From Escherichia phage dhaeg: a stretch of 64,000 bases of DNA. Positions 3,711 through 59,655 of this stretch are shown here, piece after piece. The position numbers and the translations under genes were made by a program. The notes below the pieces were generated by a model that was not told the DNA's origin, ran no database searches, and was given only the letters and a program-made list of their open reading frames with translations. Positions within the stretch are counted from its first letter, which is position 1; the number at the start of each line of letters is the position of its first letter. The stretch lies in the sequence record MN850609.1, one strand, 5' to 3'.

Positions 3711-5693
3711 TTATACTAAAGGTCCAATCAATTCATCAAAATCAGCACCAGTGCTCGTTGCAACGAAGTTCAACGTGATGTAGTTAATAGAACGAGAAGG
3801 TTTTACGTATATATTAGCAATAAACTCGTTACGGTCGATAACCGCAGGGGTGTTCACTGTAGTATCACAAACCACACGTCCTTCATAAATCCCACCAAGT
3901 GCCTTAATACCATCTAAGTACTGAGAAACTTCCATACGGAAGCTTGAACGAGTGAAGTTATCGTTCAATTCAAACAGTTTATATTTAGAGGCATCACCGA
4001 TATTTTTCTTAAGCATGTTGAACAGACGGCGAACGTTAATGTGGTCCATCGGAGATGGAACTTTAGTTGCAGTCTTATCACCAAACAATACGAAACCATC
4101 ACCACCAGCAAAACCAACAACTGGGTTAATAGCTTCCTGGTACATGCGGTCGCGTTGTGCTTGGCGTGGTTCAATTGCCAATTTCAGAACGTTAAGAATC
4201 TGACCACGGTTATAACCAGCAGGAGACATCCAAGGCTGAGACACATCATCAGTACGTGCACACAAACCAGCCATATCAGCAGCCAGTGGTACCCAACGGT
4301 TTACGTCATTATATTTGTCATACTGATATTTATAGTTACCATCAATAGCAGCATAAGTGGTACTGATGTTCATGTTGTTGGCATCGAAATTACCAGCACC
4401 GGTACGCCAGTCAATAAGGTTATCTACTGCACGAGTCAGTGGAACGTTAACCAACAGTCCTTTAGGAGGAGAAATAAATGCTAAGCAATCCTGACGTTCA
4501 TCAGCAATACTCACAACGTGTTTCTGAACAGTAGAAGCCACTTCGTCGCCTTCACCAGCAACAGCACCGGCAATAAGCAGGTTAATATGGAGTGCTTCAC
4601 GATCGGCAAACAAATCCCAACCTTGCATCAAATCGCCTGCAGTAACTTTATCGTTAGCAGAAACACCGCCCATCAGATTAATGATACCGCTGAAGCCTTT
4701 AGGCCAGTTCAAAGAGGTAGCAAAAATATAGTTGGAAGTACCTTTAGCGAAATAGTCGTCAAGATAAATGTTATTACCGTAAACGTCTTTTTCACCTTCT
4801 TTGGTAGAAAGTACGACAGATTCTACGATAGCGCCATCGCGACGAACAATAATTGCGTATTGGTCATCTGTTTGCGGTCCGTAATTAAATACTGCCTTGG
4901 CAATAGAAGCACGGGTACCACCGCCAGGATAAATATCCAGCATTTTAGAAGAACCAGCATCATAAGCGGCTTTGGAAACGATTTCTACTTCCAGAGTAGA
5001 ACCAATTTCACCGGGATAAAGAGCCACTACGCCTGGCATAGCAAATTTCTTAAGAGAAGCTTGGAATTCAAGAGAAGTAATAGCTTCTTCACTATTCTCT
5101 GCTTCAGTCAAAAGAATACCGGAATCCGTAACAATTTTACCTACGGTAATAGTACCAGAAACACCGGAAGATGCAGAAGTAACTTCAGCGGTCCAAGCTG
5201 GGCCAAGGGTAGGATACTGGTTTAAAGAACGTGCATAAGCAATAATTTTTGCTGACGGAATAAACACGGAAAGAATTTTACCGTCTGTATCTACAGAAGT
5301 CACACGACCTTCAGATTCGACTACAGTTTGGTTATATTTAATATTGATTTTATCGCCTACTGCATAGTTGGAACCGGCCGTAGTAATAGTGGTCTCAATG
5401 TTACCAGCGATAGGAGATGCGTTTTTAGCAAATTCGCGACTAACAACACGAACTGTGCGAAGGTCATTACCATACTGGAGGAAGTTCATACCAGACATAA
5501 AGTAATCTGCTACTTCGTTATTAGGACCTCCAAATAAATCAACCAGTTCAACTTCATTAGTAATCTGAGTTACCTGGAAAGCAGGGCCCCACTGGAATTT
5601 ACCTACCAGCGCTGCACGACCCGTTGCGTTACGAACGACAGTACTCTGTACGGACGTTTCTTTGAGCTCAATGCCCGGTGATAATAAAGCCAT
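3711..5693 (-). CDS. 18: tail sheath protein gp18
   Basis: 660 aa; MALLSPGIELKETSVQSTVV... closely matches recalled T4 gp18 along its length. Confidence 0.95.
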   Translation of the reverse strand: MALLSPGIELKETSVQSTVVRNATGRAALVGKFQWGPAFQVTQITNEVELVDLFGGPNNEVADYFMSGMNFLQYGNDLRTVRVVSREFAKNASPIAGNIETTITTAGSNYAVGDKINIKYNQTVVESEGRVTSVDTDGKILSVFIPSAKIIAYARSLNQYPTLGPAWTAEVTSASSGVSGTITVGKIVTDSGILLTEAENSEEAITSLEFQASLKKFAMPGVVALYPGEIGSTLEVEIVSKAAYDAGSSKMLDIYPGGGTRASIAKAVFNYGPQTDDQYAIIVRRDGAIVESVVLSTKEGEKDVYGNNIYLDDYFAKGTSNYIFATSLNWPKGFSGIINLMGGVSANDKVTAGDLMQGWDLFADREALHINLLIAGAVAGEGDEVASTVQKHVVSIADERQDCLAFISPPKGLLVNVPLTRAVDNLIDWRTGAGNFDANNMNISTTYAAIDGNYKYQYDKYNDVNRWVPLAADMAGLCARTDDVSQPWMSPAGYNRGQILNVLKLAIEPRQAQRDRMYQEAINPVVGFAGGDGFVLFGDKTATKVPSPMDHINVRRLFNMLKKNIGDASKYKLFELNDNFTRSSFRMEVSQYLDGIKALGGIYEGRVVCDTTVNTPAVIDRNEFIANIYVKPSRSINYITLNFVATSTGADFDELIGPLV

Positions 5694-31031: not shown

Positions 31032-31217
31032 ATGAAACGTTGTGAATTAATTAGAAATGTTACTGCACTGGCCGCCGTTACTGCTTTTGGCTTTAGTATG
31101 TTTGCAGGATTCATGTTGGATTTGCTTACAACTTCCGAGAATATAATCTCTTTAGTAGTGGCATTCTTAATTGGTTCAATCTCTTTCGTTATGGATAAAA
31201 TCTCTAAAGGTGAGTAA
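31032..31217 (+). CDS. small membrane protein
   Basis: 61 aa, two hydrophobic helices; start after ggagaataaa RBS. Confidence 0.5.
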   Translation: MKRCELIRNVTALAAVTAFGFSMFAGFMLDLLTTSENIISLVVAFLIGSISFVMDKISKGE

Positions 31218-31969: not shown

Positions 31970-32043
31970 GGCCCTGTAGCTGGACGGTCAAGCGAGCGAC
32001 TCATAATCGCTGGATGGTGGTTCGATTCCACCCAGGGCCACCA
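31970..32043 (+). tRNA. tRNA with CAU anticodon (Met or lysidine-type Ile)
   Basis: Hand-folded cloverleaf: acceptor GGCCCUG/CAGGGCC, anticodon stem AGCGA/UCGCU with loop CUCAUAA, T-arm GGUGG-UUCGAUU-CCACC, encoded CCA. Confidence 0.75.
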
Positions 32044-32047
32044 ATTT

Positions 32048-32122
32048 GGATGTGTAGCTCAGTGGTAGAGCAGTTGACTGTTAATCAATTGGTCCATGGT
32101 TCGAATCCATGCATGTCCGCCA
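32048..32122 (+). tRNA. tRNA-Asn (GUU)
   Basis: Acceptor GGAUGUG/CAUGUCC (two G-U pairs), D-arm GCUC-AGUGGUA-GAGC, anticodon loop CUGUUAA, T-arm CAUGG-UUCGAAU-CCAUG, encoded CCA. Confidence 0.75.
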
Positions 32123-32126
32123 AATA

Positions 32127-32202
32127 CGAGGCATAGCTCAGAAGGAAGAGCAAGGACCTTCTAAGTCCTGGGTCGTAGGTTCGATCCCTACTGTCTCGAC
32201 CA
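32127..32202 (+). tRNA. tRNA-Arg (UCU)
   Basis: Acceptor CGAGGCA/UGUCUCG, D-arm GCUC-AGAAGGAA-GAGC, anticodon stem AGGAC/GUCCU with loop CUUCUAA, T-arm GUAGG-UUCGAUC-CCUAC, encoded CCA. Confidence 0.8.
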
Positions 32203-39440: not shown

Positions 39441-39476
39441 GACCTATCAAAACAAATGAGTGAATTGGAGAATAAA

Positions 39477-39707
39477 ATGAAAGCCATCATGAGTGTTTTA
39501 GCCCTGAGCTTGGTTGCTTTAGCTGCAGTTCCTTTTATTGTTGATGTTGGAGACGAAACACAAGTTGAATCCTCAATCGTTGTCAGTAAAGATGGTACAT
39601 CGGTTAAGATCGGTAATAATCTCCATATGAATCCTAATGGTACTTTAGGTGTTCAGCTCGGTAACACATGTGTAAGCACAACTGGTAAAGTTAATACTTG
39701 CTTCTGA
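39477..39707 (+). CDS. small secreted protein (signal peptide)
   Basis: 76 aa; N-terminal MKAIMSVLALSLVALAAVPF hydrophobic signal-like segment. Confidence 0.5.
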   Translation: MKAIMSVLALSLVALAAVPFIVDVGDETQVESSIVVSKDGTSVKIGNNLHMNPNGTLGVQLGNTCVSTTGKVNTCF

Positions 39708-47379: not shown

Positions 47380-47658
47380 ATGGACCTAAATTCAAAGATT
47401 TTAATTCTAGCGTTCGCTGTGGCCATCTCTTATATTGTTCTTTCGCCCATCATGGATGATGTGGCTTACAAAAGAGAGATAGAAGTTGTAGCAGCGACGT
47501 ATAATGCTAATAATAAAGAATGTCCTAATAAAAATGGAATGGATTTAATTAAAGCGCATTATATGCTTTCCATTACCTCGCCTATACAGAGGAATTGGGT
47601 TGAATATAATTTTAACGACGTGTTCTATTCTTATTGTCGTAAGCTTAAAAAGCTATAA
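47380..47658 (+). CDS. hypothetical protein with N-terminal hydrophobic segment
   Basis: 92 aa ORF directly after tk. Confidence 0.5.
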   Translation: MDLNSKILILAFAVAISYIVLSPIMDDVAYKREIEVVAATYNANNKECPNKNGMDLIKAHYMLSITSPIQRNWVEYNFNDVFYSYCRKLKKL

Positions 47659-54004: not shown

Positions 54005-54850
54005 ATGTCACAAGCAATTAATCAAATTCGTTCTGAAGTTAAAAAAGTTGTTAAATTTGGTCGTATTCCTAGTTCTAAAGAAGTGGTTGAAAAGGTCCTA
54101 TATATGATGTGGGACAAGTTCAATGTTTGTACTGTTAAAGATGACTTTATTAAAATCTTTGACAAGACTAAAGGTTCGTTTACGTTAGAAGACCGGGTCA
54201 TGAAAACTCTTCGTAAAACAGGTATGTTGTCTCGTGCTAATGCCAAAATTATTCTTAAAAATTATAACAAAGGCTACGACCTTTATGGTCGTTTAATCCC
54301 GGCGATGTCATTTGGTGAAGTTGTTCAAGACCTTCATGCCAACCAACGACGTTTACTGGCTCTTGGCGCTCGACTTGCAAAAGGTCTTGATAAACAAATG
54401 ACATTTAAGACTAACGGTTCAGGTGATTGGATTATCTTTAATATTGTTAACCACCCTGGAAATGAAAATGAGTATACCATTTCGACTTTTAGTGGTTGTC
54501 AATACGACAACTGGAAGTTCCATCTGCGCTTGGCCCTGTCTGAATTAGAACAACACGGTGTTCTTAGTTTTGGTGATGCTGAAACTGGAGTAGGTCAGCG
54601 TATTAAACTTTATAAAATTAAAGACCTGGCTGAAGAGCATTCAGAACAAGCTCCTAAAATGGAACCTGTACCAGTGCGCAGCAATGAGAAACATCAGGCC
54701 CAGATTGAGTATTTTAGCAATTTGCTTACTTGCTTGAATGTTACAATCCAACAACAAGATGATGAGATTTTCCGACTCTCTGGTCTTAATGCCAAAGCTA
54801 AGGCTGAACGCCAGAAATATATCGATATCCTAAATCTTCTTAAGGATTAA
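54005..54850 (+). CDS. hypothetical protein with C-terminal coiled coil
   Basis: 281 aa ORF, GAGGAAATTATT RBS. Confidence 0.5.
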   Translation: MSQAINQIRSEVKKVVKFGRIPSSKEVVEKVLYMMWDKFNVCTVKDDFIKIFDKTKGSFTLEDRVMKTLRKTGMLSRANAKIILKNYNKGYDLYGRLIPAMSFGEVVQDLHANQRRLLALGARLAKGLDKQMTFKTNGSGDWIIFNIVNHPGNENEYTISTFSGCQYDNWKFHLRLALSELEQHGVLSFGDAETGVGQRIKLYKIKDLAEEHSEQAPKMEPVPVRSNEKHQAQIEYFSNLLTCLNVTIQQQDDEIFRLSGLNAKAKAERQKYIDILNLLKD

Positions 54851-54934
54851 TTATGGAATGGCTCGCTGTTCTTGGTTATGTAATCGTAGCCACGGGTGTT
54901 CTGTGGCTAATTTTCTCAAACATTATAGGTTAAT

Positions 54935-55150
54935 ATGGAAATCTTAGGTTTTATTCTCCTTTACTTTGTGCTAGGATTTATGACGACCTTTATCATTCAT
55001 AAATCAGGTGATTGGAATCCGATCGAAATTGAATCAAGCTATGATGCAGTATTCATTACACTAGTATGGCCCCTACTTTGGGTTGTTTTGGTCATTATGA
55101 TGGTGTTTTGGCCTATCGCTAAATTCTATGAAAAATTATTTGGACTTTAA
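54935..55150 (+). CDS. small membrane protein
   Basis: 71 aa, two hydrophobic helices. Confidence 0.5.
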   Translation: MEILGFILLYFVLGFMTTFIIHKSGDWNPIEIESSYDAVFITLVWPLLWVVLVIMMVFWPIAKFYEKLFGL

Positions 55151-57533: not shown

Positions 57534-57797
57534 ATGTTTAAAGTTTATGGTTACGATTCAAATATTCACCGTTGTGTTTTCTGTGATAATGCCAAACGTC
57601 TACTTGATGTTAAGAAACAACCTTACGAATTCATTAACGTGATGCCGGAAAAAGGTGTATTTGATGATAAGAAGATTGCTGAACTCTTGGCTGCTCTTGG
57701 TCGTGAATCTCAAGTAGGTTTGACCATGCCTCAGGTATTTGCTCCTGACGGAACTTCTATTGGTGGCTTTGACCAACTGCGAGCATATTTCAAATGA
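57534..57797 (+). CDS. nrdC: glutaredoxin/thioredoxin NrdC
   Basis: 87 aa; MFKVYGYDSNIH.C..CDNAKRLL.VKKQP.EFIN.MPEKGVFDD.KIAELL ... GLTMPQVFAPDG..IGGFDQLR.YFK matches recalled T4 NrdC. Confidence 0.9.
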   Translation: MFKVYGYDSNIHRCVFCDNAKRLLDVKKQPYEFINVMPEKGVFDDKKIAELLAALGRESQVGLTMPQVFAPDGTSIGGFDQLRAYFK

Positions 57798-57961
57798 TTG
57801 AATTATTGTTGGGTATTTTGTATCTTATCATCGGTATTGGTTATGCTAAGACCCTAGCTAAATTAGATGATTTCGGTGCAGGTGACTTTTGTTGGTGGCT
57901 GACGTCTATGATTTGTTGGCCTTTATTTCTGGTTGGTGCTTCATTCTGGAACTTTAAATGA
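57794..57961 (+). CDS. small hydrophobic membrane protein (55 aa)
   Basis: ORF below track cutoff; ATGA overlap with nrdC stop; two hydrophobic helices. Confidence 0.4.
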   Translation: MIELLLGILYLIIGIGYAKTLAKLDDFGAGDFCWWLTSMICWPLFLVGASFWNFK

Positions 57962-58266
57962 TTGGATTAAATGAACAGACCATTTTTCTAGGTGATGGTA
58001 CTGAAGACGACCTAGAATATAAACTATACGAATATATGGTTTGGTTGGCTAAAGCAGAAGGTATTGATTTTGTTGTGGCTAACCCGTATGGCGAGAATAC
58101 TGTTGTAATCGGTGGCACTGCTTATGAAGTCCAATGGCAATACGTTGGGCTAGAATCTGAAGAATTTGAAGAAGATGAGCATGGTGATTGGCATCCGGTT
58201 GGCCCTTGGTATTGGGAAAACGGCGAGCCTGATTTTGAAGTAAGTAGTTGGTGGTGTGACCGTTAA
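57958..58266 (+). CDS. hypothetical acidic protein
   Basis: 102 aa; ATGA overlap. Confidence 0.5.
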   Translation: MIGLNEQTIFLGDGTEDDLEYKLYEYMVWLAKAEGIDFVVANPYGENTVVIGGTAYEVQWQYVGLESEEFEEDEHGDWHPVGPWYWENGEPDFEVSSWWCDR

Positions 58267-58382
58267 GCCATGGTATGTCGCTCGGTGGGAAACTACCGAG
58301 CCAGAGGAACCGGTTTACAACGATTCCGAAATAGAGTATAATGAACCTTCAAACAATGATTTAATCGATATGGAGTTTGGAT

Positions 58383-58556
58383 ATGAGTACCAAAATTGAA
58401 GTTGGCCGTCACAAAGGCCGTCTGATTGAGCATTCGCTTTACGAGTTGTCGGATTCGGGTTCTTTACCTGACCTAGAATCCGATTTGATTAAAGCTGCTG
58501 CTGACTATATCCATTGGCTTGAAGCTCAACTTCGCTTTGCTGATAAGGCGTTCTGA
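58383..58556 (+). CDS. hypothetical small protein (57 aa)
   Basis: ORF below track cutoff, fills the gap before gene 49. Confidence 0.4.
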   Translation: MSTKIEVGRHKGRLIEHSLYELSDSGSLPDLESDLIKAAADYIHWLEAQLRFADKAF

Positions 58557-58632
58557 TGAAAACTTCTACTGTAATCTTGTGCTTATGGGGAATTTTTAAT
58601 TTGGGTATGCTTGTTTACTTGGTGGGTCAATT

Positions 58633-58809
58633 ATGAAAACTAAATTAGTCTATACTGAAAAGTTAAATGGTGACAAGGTCTGGAAACTTCTTATCAAAGG
58701 AAGTCCTACCGACCAGTTTATGGCCACCTGTATAGGGTTGTATACCCGTCCTACCAAAAAGATGATTCGTCAATTTAAACGGTTGCATCGCTCATTTTAT
58801 AATGTTTAA
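58633..58809 (+). CDS. hypothetical small protein (58 aa)
   Basis: ORF below track cutoff; preceded by a 26-codon hydrophobic mini-ORF at 58556-58636. Confidence 0.35.
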   Translation: MKTKLVYTEKLNGDKVWKLLIKGSPTDQFMATCIGLYTRPTKKMIRQFKRLHRSFYNV

Positions 58810-58844
58810 TAAATACCCTTATCTAATAATGGTAAGGGTTTATT

Positions 58845-59318
58845 ATGTTGCTGACTGGCAAATTATACAAAGAAGAAAAACAAAATCTTTATGATGCACA
58901 ACATGGTAAGTGTTTGATTTGTAAACGTGAATTAAACCCTGATGTTCAAAGTAACCACCTTGACCACGACCATGAATTGAATGGGCCAAAAGCCGGTAAG
59001 GTTCGTGGTTTACTATGTAATCTGTGCAATGCTGCAGAAGGACAAATGAAGCATAAGTTCAACCGTTCTGGTTTGAAAGGTCAAAACGTTGACTACCTCG
59101 AATGGTTAGAGAATTTGCTGGTCTATCTGAAAGCTGATTATACCGAAAATAATATCCATCCTAATTTCGTTCCTGATAAAACCAAAGAGTTCAGTAGATT
59201 AGGTAAGGAAGAAATGATTGCTGAAATGCTTTCACATGGAATGACTTATAATGAATCTGACACAAAGAAACAAATGGTCGATTCATTTAAAAAACAACTG
59301 AGGAAATCGCTTAAATGA
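58845..59318 (+). CDS. 49: endonuclease VII (Holliday junction resolvase)
   Basis: 157 aa; MLLTGKLYKEEKQ..YDAQ.GKCLIC.RELNPDVQ.NHLDHDHELNGPKAGKVRGLLCNLCNAAEGQMKHKFNRSGLKGQ matches recalled T4 gp49. Confidence 0.95.
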   Translation: MLLTGKLYKEEKQNLYDAQHGKCLICKRELNPDVQSNHLDHDHELNGPKAGKVRGLLCNLCNAAEGQMKHKFNRSGLKGQNVDYLEWLENLLVYLKADYTENNIHPNFVPDKTKEFSRLGKEEMIAEMLSHGMTYNESDTKKQMVDSFKKQLRKSLK

Positions 59319-59439
59319 TTAATTTTTATGGCTACACATTCTATGCTTTAGCCGAATCAGTGAATGATGCTGTACGTCTTATGGGTGTTGAGTATCCTGC
59401 TCAATGGTTATTTGTTGTAACTAACATGTGGGTTCTTTA

Positions 59440-59655
59440 ATGAATAAATTTCGTAATGCAGTTTCTGATATCTTGGCCAATATTACATTTGTCTTGTTTA
59501 TTGTGTGCCTTTTAATCCTAGTCATCCCATTTGGATTGCTGTTCGTTATTATTGGTGCGCTGAGTACTGAAAAGGGTCTCGAAGAGTCTGAGTTCGAAAA
59601 ACGAATCCAGTCTGTCCATAGTGTTATTTCTAAAATGATGAAGGTGAAAGAATGA
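59440..59655 (+). CDS. small membrane protein
   Basis: Start at ATG 59440; long hydrophobic segment. Confidence 0.45.
   Translation: MNKFRNAVSDILANITFVLFIVCLLILVIPFGLLFVIIGALSTEKGLEESEFEKRIQSVHSVISKMMKVKE

Follow-up and report, generated by a model that had tools for sequence, protein, structure and literature searches.

No part of T4-like genomes is less well characterised than the small hydrophobic proteins, and a few of those already studied, Imm among them, govern the outcome of infection and the competition between phages. Gain and loss of genes in the hyperplastic regions of T4-type phages are documented (PMC2839356). A known relative of one of the genes investigated here is T4 gp55.8 (UniProt P07076, Y04H_BPT4; PF26812; PHROG 1930), whose RNA was classed as early while the protein has class NA in proteome data (PMC9697503, supplementary file 4). 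Our literature search for gp55.8, Y04H and nrdC.7 found nothing relevant. PHROGs 7899 and 6756 gather hypothetical proteins of small size from Dhakavirus, Gaprivervirus and T4-like phages related to them. In bacteria, small membrane proteins usually bind larger membrane proteins and are overlooked by annotation pipelines (PMC12648545).

Genomic Context of the Five Small ORFs

The 64,000-nucleotide stretch of phage DNA that was analysed (the window) is identified by its sequence as deriving from a Dhakavirus, a JS98-like relative of T4 and probably phage dhaeg. An earlier note had called attention to five very small hydrophobic ORFs, named here A to E. They lie in the early-gene context nrdC.6–nrdC–49–nrdH and are encoded by the same strand as the flanking early genes, with tight junctions, and all five were recovered at the positions and with the lengths proposed:

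54853–54933, + strand: ORF A, 26-aa single-helix microprotein MEWLAVLGYVIVATGVLWLIFSNIIG, which occupies the entire gap between nrdC.6 and B
54935–55150, + strand: ORF B, 71 aa, membrane protein with a two-helix hairpin, PHROG 7899
57794–57961, + strand: ORF C, 55 aa, membrane protein with two helices, PHROG 6756; it occupies the variable slot between nrdC and 49.3 and has ATGA overlaps at both ends
58556–58636, + strand: ORF D, 26-aa single-helix ORF MKTSTVILCLWGIFNLGMLVYLVGQL, in a 77-bp insert that separates the pin-like and DUF7279 genes
59440–59655, + strand: ORF E, 71 aa counted from its ATG, the T4 gp55.8 orthologue, composed of a basic N-terminal stretch, a long hydrophobic helix (residues ~14–41) and a charged C-terminal helix

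The predicted transmembrane (TM) segments also stood, hydropathy, and for B and E also structure models, giving one or two hydrophobic helices per ORF. Hydropathy was expressed as the best 19-residue Kyte-Doolittle mean, which is 2.26 for A, 2.73 for B (two segments), 1.89 for C, 2.15 for D and 3.32 for E. For ORF C this 19-residue measure picks out the N-terminal segment only, and the second helix was read from the sequence. Hydrophobicity alone is weak evidence for a gene because the threshold is also reached by 6–7% of the wrong-frame short ORFs in the window. What places A, B, C and E above chance is their conservation with purifying selection: pN/pS is 0.14, 0.29, 0.17 and 0.18, respectively, compared to 0.23 for nrdC and 0.24 for gp49, and the ATG start is kept by all homologues examined for selection. 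These values identify A, B, C and E as protein-coding genes under purifying selection.

The description of the five ORFs as a cluster is modestly borne out by the density of small TM genes, as three with an assigned family (five when A and D are counted) lie within 4.8 kb and three in the remaining ~59 kb, but the five are mutually unrelated and occupy separate slots. Pairwise comparisons among A–E gave no significant similarity, identifying them as five unrelated genes and not a single system. Two particular relationships were also discarded. The Y..IG and WP motifs shared by B and C did not make them paralogues (hhalign probability of 22% over 16 columns), and the similarity of A to the first helix of B, of which it might have been a partial duplication, was no better than in shuffles at DNA and protein levels. 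The set is nothing unusual for the hyperplastic regions of T4-like phages; its modest novelty lies in ORF A and in the orphan ORF D. The lack of relationship among the five, the correspondence of E to T4 gene 55.8 and the uniqueness of D had not been recognised at first reading.

Translational coupling of the five ORFs through ATGA overlaps had been proposed. This holds for C, D and E: such overlaps are found at the nrdC/C, C/49.3 and D/DUF7279 junctions and between E and its next gene, while overlaps of one nucleotide connect pin to D (TGATG) and a 41-aa ORF to E (TAATG). The junctions of A and B are without overlap (TAAttATG, TAAtATG and TAAtATG). No MotA-box motif and no late-promoter consensus was found on the + strand between 53 and 61.5 kb. 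The region shows no enrichment of matches to σ70-like promoters (30 versus 26.9 expected), so that its transcription units are inferred from T4.

Conserved Genes B and E

Each of the 84 matching Dhakavirus and Gaprivervirus records contains ORFs B and E. ORF B, with matches in 84 phage records, aligns to phrog_7899 (E = 2e-31, profile positions 1–71 of 71) and ORF C to phrog_6756 (E = 3.1e-30, positions 1–55 of 56). Both thus match small hypothetical proteins of T4-like phages end to end, whereas T4 itself has no equivalent at the positions of B and C. The AlphaFold model of B is a helical hairpin formed by helices 2–23 and 36–69 (pLDDT 78). Its distant relatives in T4-like phages share 25–36% identity and keep Y10, G14 and W45-P46.

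ORF E aligns to T4 gp55.8 with 42% identity over 59 residues (BLASTP, E = 1e-16) and to phrog_1930 over its entire length (E = 1.2e-30, profile positions 1–71 of 71). The two proteins have similar lengths (71 aa for E, 70 aa in T4) and share a basic N-terminus, a long hydrophobic helix that contains a conserved IPF motif, and a subsequent EKGL...SEF motif, likewise conserved; their genes are also alike in their early-strand position shortly upstream of nrdH. These similarities identify E as the orthologue of gp55.8. The gene order differs between the two phages: T4 has nrdG, 55.8 and nrdH, while the window has gene 49, the 41-aa ORF (PHROG 3350), E, a 98-aa ORF and nrdH. The gene thus follows nrdG in T4 but is preceded here by the 41-aa ORF, and nrdD and nrdG are not located between gene 49 and 55.8. 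The Pfam family PF26812 (Phage_T4_Y04H) is recorded on 71-aa homologues of E, although the local Pfam search with E gave no match. The JS98 record names its homologue 55.8, and gp55.8 already carries the annotation of a predicted membrane protein. AlphaFold models E as one long helix spanning residues 2–70 (pLDDT 87). Two faint similarities, of E to PADLOC PycTM (E = 0.018) and of T4 gp55.8 to ETRAMP (E = 0.097), were judged to be composition-driven.

ORF A, a 26-Residue Gene

The initiation codon of ORF A lies 6 nt downstream of the ribosome-binding site (RBS) AAGGA (54842–54846). In-frame matches were found in 26 phage records, with 80–100% identity. The flank was read for 17 copies, and in these A directly precedes a B-type gene. 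Its substitutions are codon-periodic in the A frame, with 7, 2 and 10 variable columns at codon positions 1, 2 and 3, and lead to conservative swaps among I, V, F, A and T. The alternative frame over the same segment has a pN/pS of 4.66, to be compared with the low value of the A frame given above, and the composition-controlled p is 0.003. These data identify ORF A as a conserved real gene that is nearly always missed by annotators. Only the records of DK-13 and RZ annotate it (2 of 26) and two others have the wrong frame annotated.

The remark that ORFs of this kind escape annotation is thus well supported, also by the absence of D from protein collections and by the JS98 record, which lacks the C homologue. 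The two 26-aa ORFs may escape gene callers on account of their length of only 81 nt. The present work corrects the annotation for JS98, CLB_P2 and UPEC01.

Module A is bounded by direct repeats and contains a potential RNA structure:

54847–54858, + strand: direct repeat of module A, left copy, ttaattATGGAA
54930–54940, + strand: direct repeat of module A, right copy, ttaatATGGAA
54887–54909, + strand: terminator-like hairpin within the coding sequence of ORF A, with no independent support

Recombination between the left and right repeats would yield the exact nrdC.6/B junction found in QL01 and VR5. The hairpin raises the possibility that the module is not a protein-coding gene but an RNA element, acting as a hairpin or terminator in the gap that separates nrdC.6 from B. 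Its 10-bp stem is followed by ATTTTCT and is 92% paired over 12 distinct copies. However, no compensatory changes were found, the pairing counts are indistinguishable from those of shuffles, and the T-run as well as the outer pairs are lost in the Gaprivervirus copies. We find this proposal scarcely credible in view of the codon periodicity in the A frame and of its pN/pS of 0.14, and we treat A as a gene.

Cassette Exchange at the Slots of C and D

ORFs A, C and D are present or absent among close relatives, in variable slots, and the nrdC/49.3 and pin/DUF7279 junctions are hot spots of cassette exchange. ORF C matched 72 records. An identical sequence occurs in RZ, MN01 and DK-13, which are Gaprivervirus phages, while C is lacking in dhabil and CLB_P2, the closest relatives, a distribution that points to horizontal exchange.

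ORF D belongs to a 77-bp insert that is absent in dhabil and replaced in JS98 by an unrelated 100-aa gene. At least three other states of this slot were found (empty, with the 100-aa gene or with an 89-aa gene). The insert is bounded by a repeat of the downstream gene start:

58556–58564, + strand: 9-bp direct repeat of module D, left copy, ATGAAAACT, start of D
58633–58641, + strand: 9-bp direct repeat of module D, right copy, ATGAAAACT, start of the DUF7279 gene

Searches of 50,697 phage records by tblastn and blastn gave no match to D, no exact or codon-degenerate DNA pattern was found in viral, metagenome and genome collections, and the protein collection has no exact-sequence match. The insert is also absent from the 14 contigs that carry the exact flanking genes. 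Neither A nor D has a family in PHROGs, Pfam, NCBIfam or PADLOC. The 100-aa JS98 gene, the 89-aa VR20 cassette gene and the neighbouring genes were rejected as sources from which D might have decayed (p = 0.38–0.91), as was the T4 pin region, where a 16-nt match on the reverse strand is at chance level.

It has close to an even chance that D is a by-product of cassette exchange, a scar or newly acquired filler whose frame is open by chance, or only for handing ribosomes on from pin to DUF7279, and which codes a functionless peptide. This would account for an ORF confined to a single genome among all collections searched, in a hot-spot slot and next to a repeated start codon. In relatives without D the DUF7279 gene is coupled directly to pin by the same TGATG arrangement. 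With 47% T, the 77-bp insert is fairly prone to hydrophobic frames by its composition alone: when it was shuffled with its own composition, 20% of the sequences were open and 10% of the open ones were as hydrophobic as D. On the other hand, the joint probability of an open and equally hydrophobic frame in these composition-controlled shuffles is ~0.02. Codon usage of D (score of 0.14 per codon) is about that of the validated gene B and within the top 5% of open off-frame segments. Four of the other frames of the insert hold one to three stop codons each, and frame +1 starts on a stop codon but is open afterwards. D also has its own RBS, TAAGG (58544–58548), with the ATG correctly spaced 7 nt downstream, and the GGTGGG found within D (58621–58626) is a possible RBS of the DUF7279 gene. 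The coding evidence is suggestive only, while the RBS and the perfect coupling geometry indicate that D is probably translated.

Putative Function of the Small Membrane Proteins

The overall explanation that we consider likely is that A–E are five unrelated, independently inherited genes of inner-membrane proteins in an early stretch, B and E being conserved and A, C and D optional cassettes, with an accessory role. A, C and D would be gained and lost by recombination at short repeats at gene junctions. All five would be co-transcribed with the neighbouring early genes, as suggested by the early class of the T4 55.8 mRNA, and translated from their own RBS or by coupling to the upstream gene. 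The products are predicted to insert in the host inner membrane and may act there through helix-helix contacts with membrane proteins of the host or of the phage. They would be dispensable accessory factors, most plausibly serving competition or host adaptation; candidate roles are the exclusion of other phages, counter-defence, and tuning of a host transporter or of the membrane energy state. Our best guess from the sequences is thus a group of dispensable inner-membrane miniproteins made early and binding host or phage membrane proteins. A–E have no annotated function in PHROGs, Pfam and NCBIfam, and PADLOC gave no match to a defence or anti-defence family. These searches neither back nor contradict the role in host takeover or superinfection exclusion that the note had suggested.

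The exclusion of other phages can be examined against T4 Imm (83 aa, two TM helices), a protein of superinfection immunity established as such according to the T4 record annotation, on which the analogy is built. A–E would then be superinfection-exclusion factors like Imm or HK97 gp15, altering the inner membrane in a way that blocks DNA entry of a second phage. Like the predicted products described here, Imm is small, early and located in the inner membrane; it comes from a T-even phage, and B and C have its small two-helix architecture. The early expression context, seen in the 55.8 data, and a presence/absence polymorphism typical of competition genes fit the same proposal. However, imm lies between genes 42 and 43 in T4 and no similarity of A–E to Imm was detected, the local alignment scores falling within the shuffle distribution (p = 0.24–0.82). 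The presence of B and E throughout the 84 matched records is explained equally well by a housekeeping accessory role. Exclusion by A–E is putative, and we regard it as an unlikely common function.

Membrane damage is another action conceivable for such peptides, in a manner similar to type I toxins (Ibs, ShoB, TisB) or to holins and antiholins, to shut off the host or time its lysis. A and D are indeed nearly all-hydrophobic single helices of 26 residues, and ShoB has about the same size. This assignment is quite improbable: A–E have no toxin or holin family match in Pfam and NCBIfam, their neighbours are genes of early nucleotide metabolism and recombination and not of lysis, and the late-promoter consensus is missing from the region. 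A depolarising peptide made early and constitutively would presumably also hurt the replication of the phage itself.

A doubtful, more far-reaching variant is that A and D represent an overlooked coding layer of phages, made of single-helix membrane microproteins of fewer than 30 residues that recombination at start-codon microrepeats would have slotted in among conserved genes. D might then be a very recent acquisition or have arisen de novo, and A might be a conserved partner subunit of B.

Comparison with Known Cassettes and Small Membrane Proteins

ORF A provides a clean case, backed by conservation, of a 26-residue gene that is absent or misframed in nearly all deposited records. The practical value of the work is an improved annotation and a shortlist of candidates for tagging and deletion, and not a new mechanism. 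The modular shuffling mediated by PeSLs (promoter-early stem-loops; PMC2839356, PMC4122927) resembles the situation described here in its outcome: in close relatives, dispensable small genes with no known function are gained, lost or exchanged at sites between conserved ones. It differs in its boundaries: modules A and D are delimited by start-codon repeats of 9–12 bp and not by a promoter and stem-loop, no promoter-like site flanks either of them, and the hairpin in A has no conserved T-run. Although phage-encoded and without a family match, A and D are similar in size to bacterial small membrane proteins such as YohP (27 aa; PMC12648545; insertion, PMC7549839) and, like them, comprise little beyond one TM helix.

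Organization of the locus

Five small hydrophobic ORFs, termed here A to E, are encoded on the + strand, along which the early genes also run. Gene order was established from the ORF list of the window and three annotated relatives:

54005-54850, + strand, nrdC.6
54853-54933, + strand, A (26 aa)
54935-55150, + strand, B (71 aa), followed by a 290-aa gene, nrdC.4, nrdC.2 and nrdC.1
57534-57797, + strand, nrdC, 3′ of nrdC.1
57794-57961, + strand, C (55 aa), followed by 49.3 and 49.1
58383-58556, + strand, short pin-like gene
58556-58636, + strand, D (26 aa)
58633-58809, + strand, DUF7279 gene
58845-59318, + strand, gene 49
59315-59440, + strand, 41-aa ORF (PHROG 3350)
59440-59655, + strand, E (71 aa), followed by a 98-aa ORF and nrdH

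Over the 5.7 kb around A-E, sequence identity reaches 96.7% with CLB_P2 and dhabil, both Dhakavirus phages, and 93% with JS98. Only in phage dhaeg, one of the Danish wastewater phages (PMC7552041), are the B, C and E proteins all found as exact sequences.

All five ORFs have the positions and lengths given in an earlier note. The ATGA overlaps through which it proposed translational coupling were found at nrdC/C, C/49.3, D/DUF7279 and E/next gene, but not for A and B, which are separated by gaps of one or two bases from their neighbours. The pin/D and 41-aa ORF/E junctions are one-base overlaps.

With just 57 codons, the pin-like gene aligns only with the last third of T4 PinA, at the C-terminus (Pfam positions 88-136 of 136; T4 pin has 161 aa); phage UGJNEcP3 carries a 140-aa pin-like version in the same position. 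The 41-aa ORF, which has an ATGA overlap with gene 49, is a very small conserved non-transmembrane gene (pN/pS 0.26), and its truncated homologue in JS98 was left unannotated. A stable RNA hairpin (58807-58845, core stem 58815-58839; −16.1 kcal/mol, z = −2.8) lies directly upstream of the gene 49 ATG, with a 3′ arm that reaches the start codon and covers the ribosome-binding site (RBS). It resembles the T4 gene 49 hairpin, which keeps the long form of gp49 from being translated on early transcripts.

Three other small genes with hydrophobic segments, from PHROG families without known function, are found in the window, as are three tRNA genes adjacent to one another:

31032-31217, small hydrophobic gene (61 aa, PHROG 1692)
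31970-32202, tRNA genes Met-CAT, Asn-GTT and Arg-TCT
39456-39704, small hydrophobic gene (83 aa, PHROG 4189)
47380-47655, small hydrophobic gene (92 aa, PHROG 6298)

Coding evidence for A, B, C and E

Hydropathy analysis bears out the hydrophobic character attributed to these ORFs, with at least one stretch in each of A-E that would suffice to span a membrane. AlphaFold predicts a hairpin of helices for B and one long helix for E. The second helix of C was read from the sequence, and a 19-residue hydropathy window flags its N-terminal segment only. Hydrophobicity by itself proves little about the existence of a gene because 6-7% of wrong-frame short ORFs inside long genes of this AT-rich genome reach the same threshold.

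Substitution patterns were determined from 46 related IMG/VR loci, retrieved with gp49 as probe, and further GenBank records. The pN/pS values of A (0.14), B (0.29), C (0.17) and E (0.18) compare with 0.23 for nrdC, 0.24 for gp49 and 0.15 for the pin-like gene, and the ATG start is kept in all homologues. These patterns identify A, B, C and E as real protein-coding genes: all four are under purifying selection and encode one- or two-helix hydrophobic miniproteins.

The smallest of them, A, contains a terminator-like hairpin and might be taken for an RNA element rather than a coding gene, but covariation of this hairpin was not found and its T-run is not conserved. The codon periodicity of A favours coding: of the 19 variable columns in 12 distinct ungapped copies, 7, 2 and 10 fall on codon positions 1, 2 and 3, respectively. 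Among nine amino acid variants, eight carry only conservative I/V/F/A/T changes, the exception being W18R in IME281. An overlapping 29-codon frame annotated over A in CLB_P2 and UPEC01 has a pN/pS of 4.66 with radical changes and is therefore the wrong frame:

54858-54947, mis-framed 29-aa ORF over A (859-948 of the CLB_P2 locus L003; 406-495 of the UPEC01 locus L053)

Identity of the small ORFs

The orthologue of T4 gp55.8 in this genome is E (42% identity, E = 1e-16), which matches PHROG 1930 and is already annotated as a predicted membrane protein in JS98 and other records; its homologues carry Pfam PF26812. The T4 55.8 mRNA was classed as early, and mass spectrometry gave no class for the gp55.8 protein (PMC9697503, supplement). 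B (PHROG 7899) occurs in 84 Dhakavirus and Gaprivervirus records and has relatives in more distant T4-like phages (25-36% identity) that keep Y10, G14 and W45-P46. C (PHROG 6756) is found in 72 records. In JS98 (EF469154; locus L002) an intact 53-aa C homologue at 3792-3953 is unannotated; it is overlapped by the annotated start of orf81 (3884-4138), whose likely start is 3950. A has no family match in PHROGs, Pfam, NCBIfam or PADLOC; of the 26 records that contain it in frame, only those of DK-13 and RZ annotate it. T4 lacks equivalents of A, B and C.

Of the five, E was known before, and B and C belong to catalogued families of hypothetical proteins; A is a conserved gene of 26 residues that nearly all annotations omit, and D is an orphan. 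The overall finding is sound but ordinary, useful for improving annotation and for supplying a few experimental candidates.

The orphan ORF D

D lies in a 77-bp insert flanked by the 9-bp repeat ATGAAAACT, with which D and the downstream gene both begin. The insert has no match at the protein or DNA level in 50,697 phage genomes, nor, by exact and codon-degenerate patterns, in IMG/VR, JGI metagenomes and GTDB genomes. It is missing from 14 contigs (Logan, ENA and NCBI) whose flanking proteins are exactly those of the window, and D is absent from a collection of 15 billion proteins. Sequence comparison ruled out that D is a remnant of the alternative cassettes (100-aa and 89-aa genes). D is preceded by a TAAGG RBS 7 nt upstream and contains a GGTGGG positioned to serve the downstream gene. 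Its codon usage is that of B, within the top 5% of open off-frame segments, and shuffling its own sequence (47% T) yields an open frame of the same hydrophobicity in only 2% of cases. This intrinsic evidence suggests coding but does not prove it: D could just as well be a scar left by recombination, with an open frame that does no more than keep translation coupled.

Possible roles

The five peptides would be expressed early, along with the surrounding genes, insert into the inner membrane and bind larger host or phage membrane proteins, acting as dispensable accessory factors in competition or host adaptation. Judging from charge distribution, both ends of B are probably cytoplasmic, with an acidic loop in the periplasm, and the N-terminus of E probably lies inside; A and D are predicted to be little more than a single helix. 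Analogy suggests possible specific roles, among them superinfection exclusion as by Imm, membrane damage as by type I toxins, and lysis control, but none of them has sequence support. Sequence comparison found A-E unrelated to T4 Imm or NrdC.7, and no relationship was detected among the five.

Cassette organization

Optional cassettes account for three of the five loci. The A module (82 bp) is flanked by the repeat ttaat(t)ATGGAA and present in 26 genomes, with a partial deletion in one locus. QL01, VR5 and IME341 lack it cleanly, with nrdC.6 directly next to B. Between nrdC and 49.3, the slot contains C alone, C with an RB69 orf092c-like gene, the latter alone (in dhabil and CLB_P2, the nearest Dhakavirus genomes), unrelated genes, or no gene (T4). 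The window shares its C allele, a 55-aa form with FGAGD, without any difference with the Gaprivervirus phages RZ, MN01 and DK-13, which indicates exchange of the C cassette between genera. D occupies the pin/DUF7279 slot in this window only. Nothing lies in that slot in dhabil and VR5; in JS98 and IME341 it is filled by a 100-aa gene, in VR20 and VR26 by an 89-aa gene. Shuffling of small non-essential genes is documented for the hyperplastic regions of T4-type phages (PMC2839356). Unlike in the promoter-early stem-loop (PeSL) cassettes of these phages, the module boundaries found here are start-codon microrepeats.
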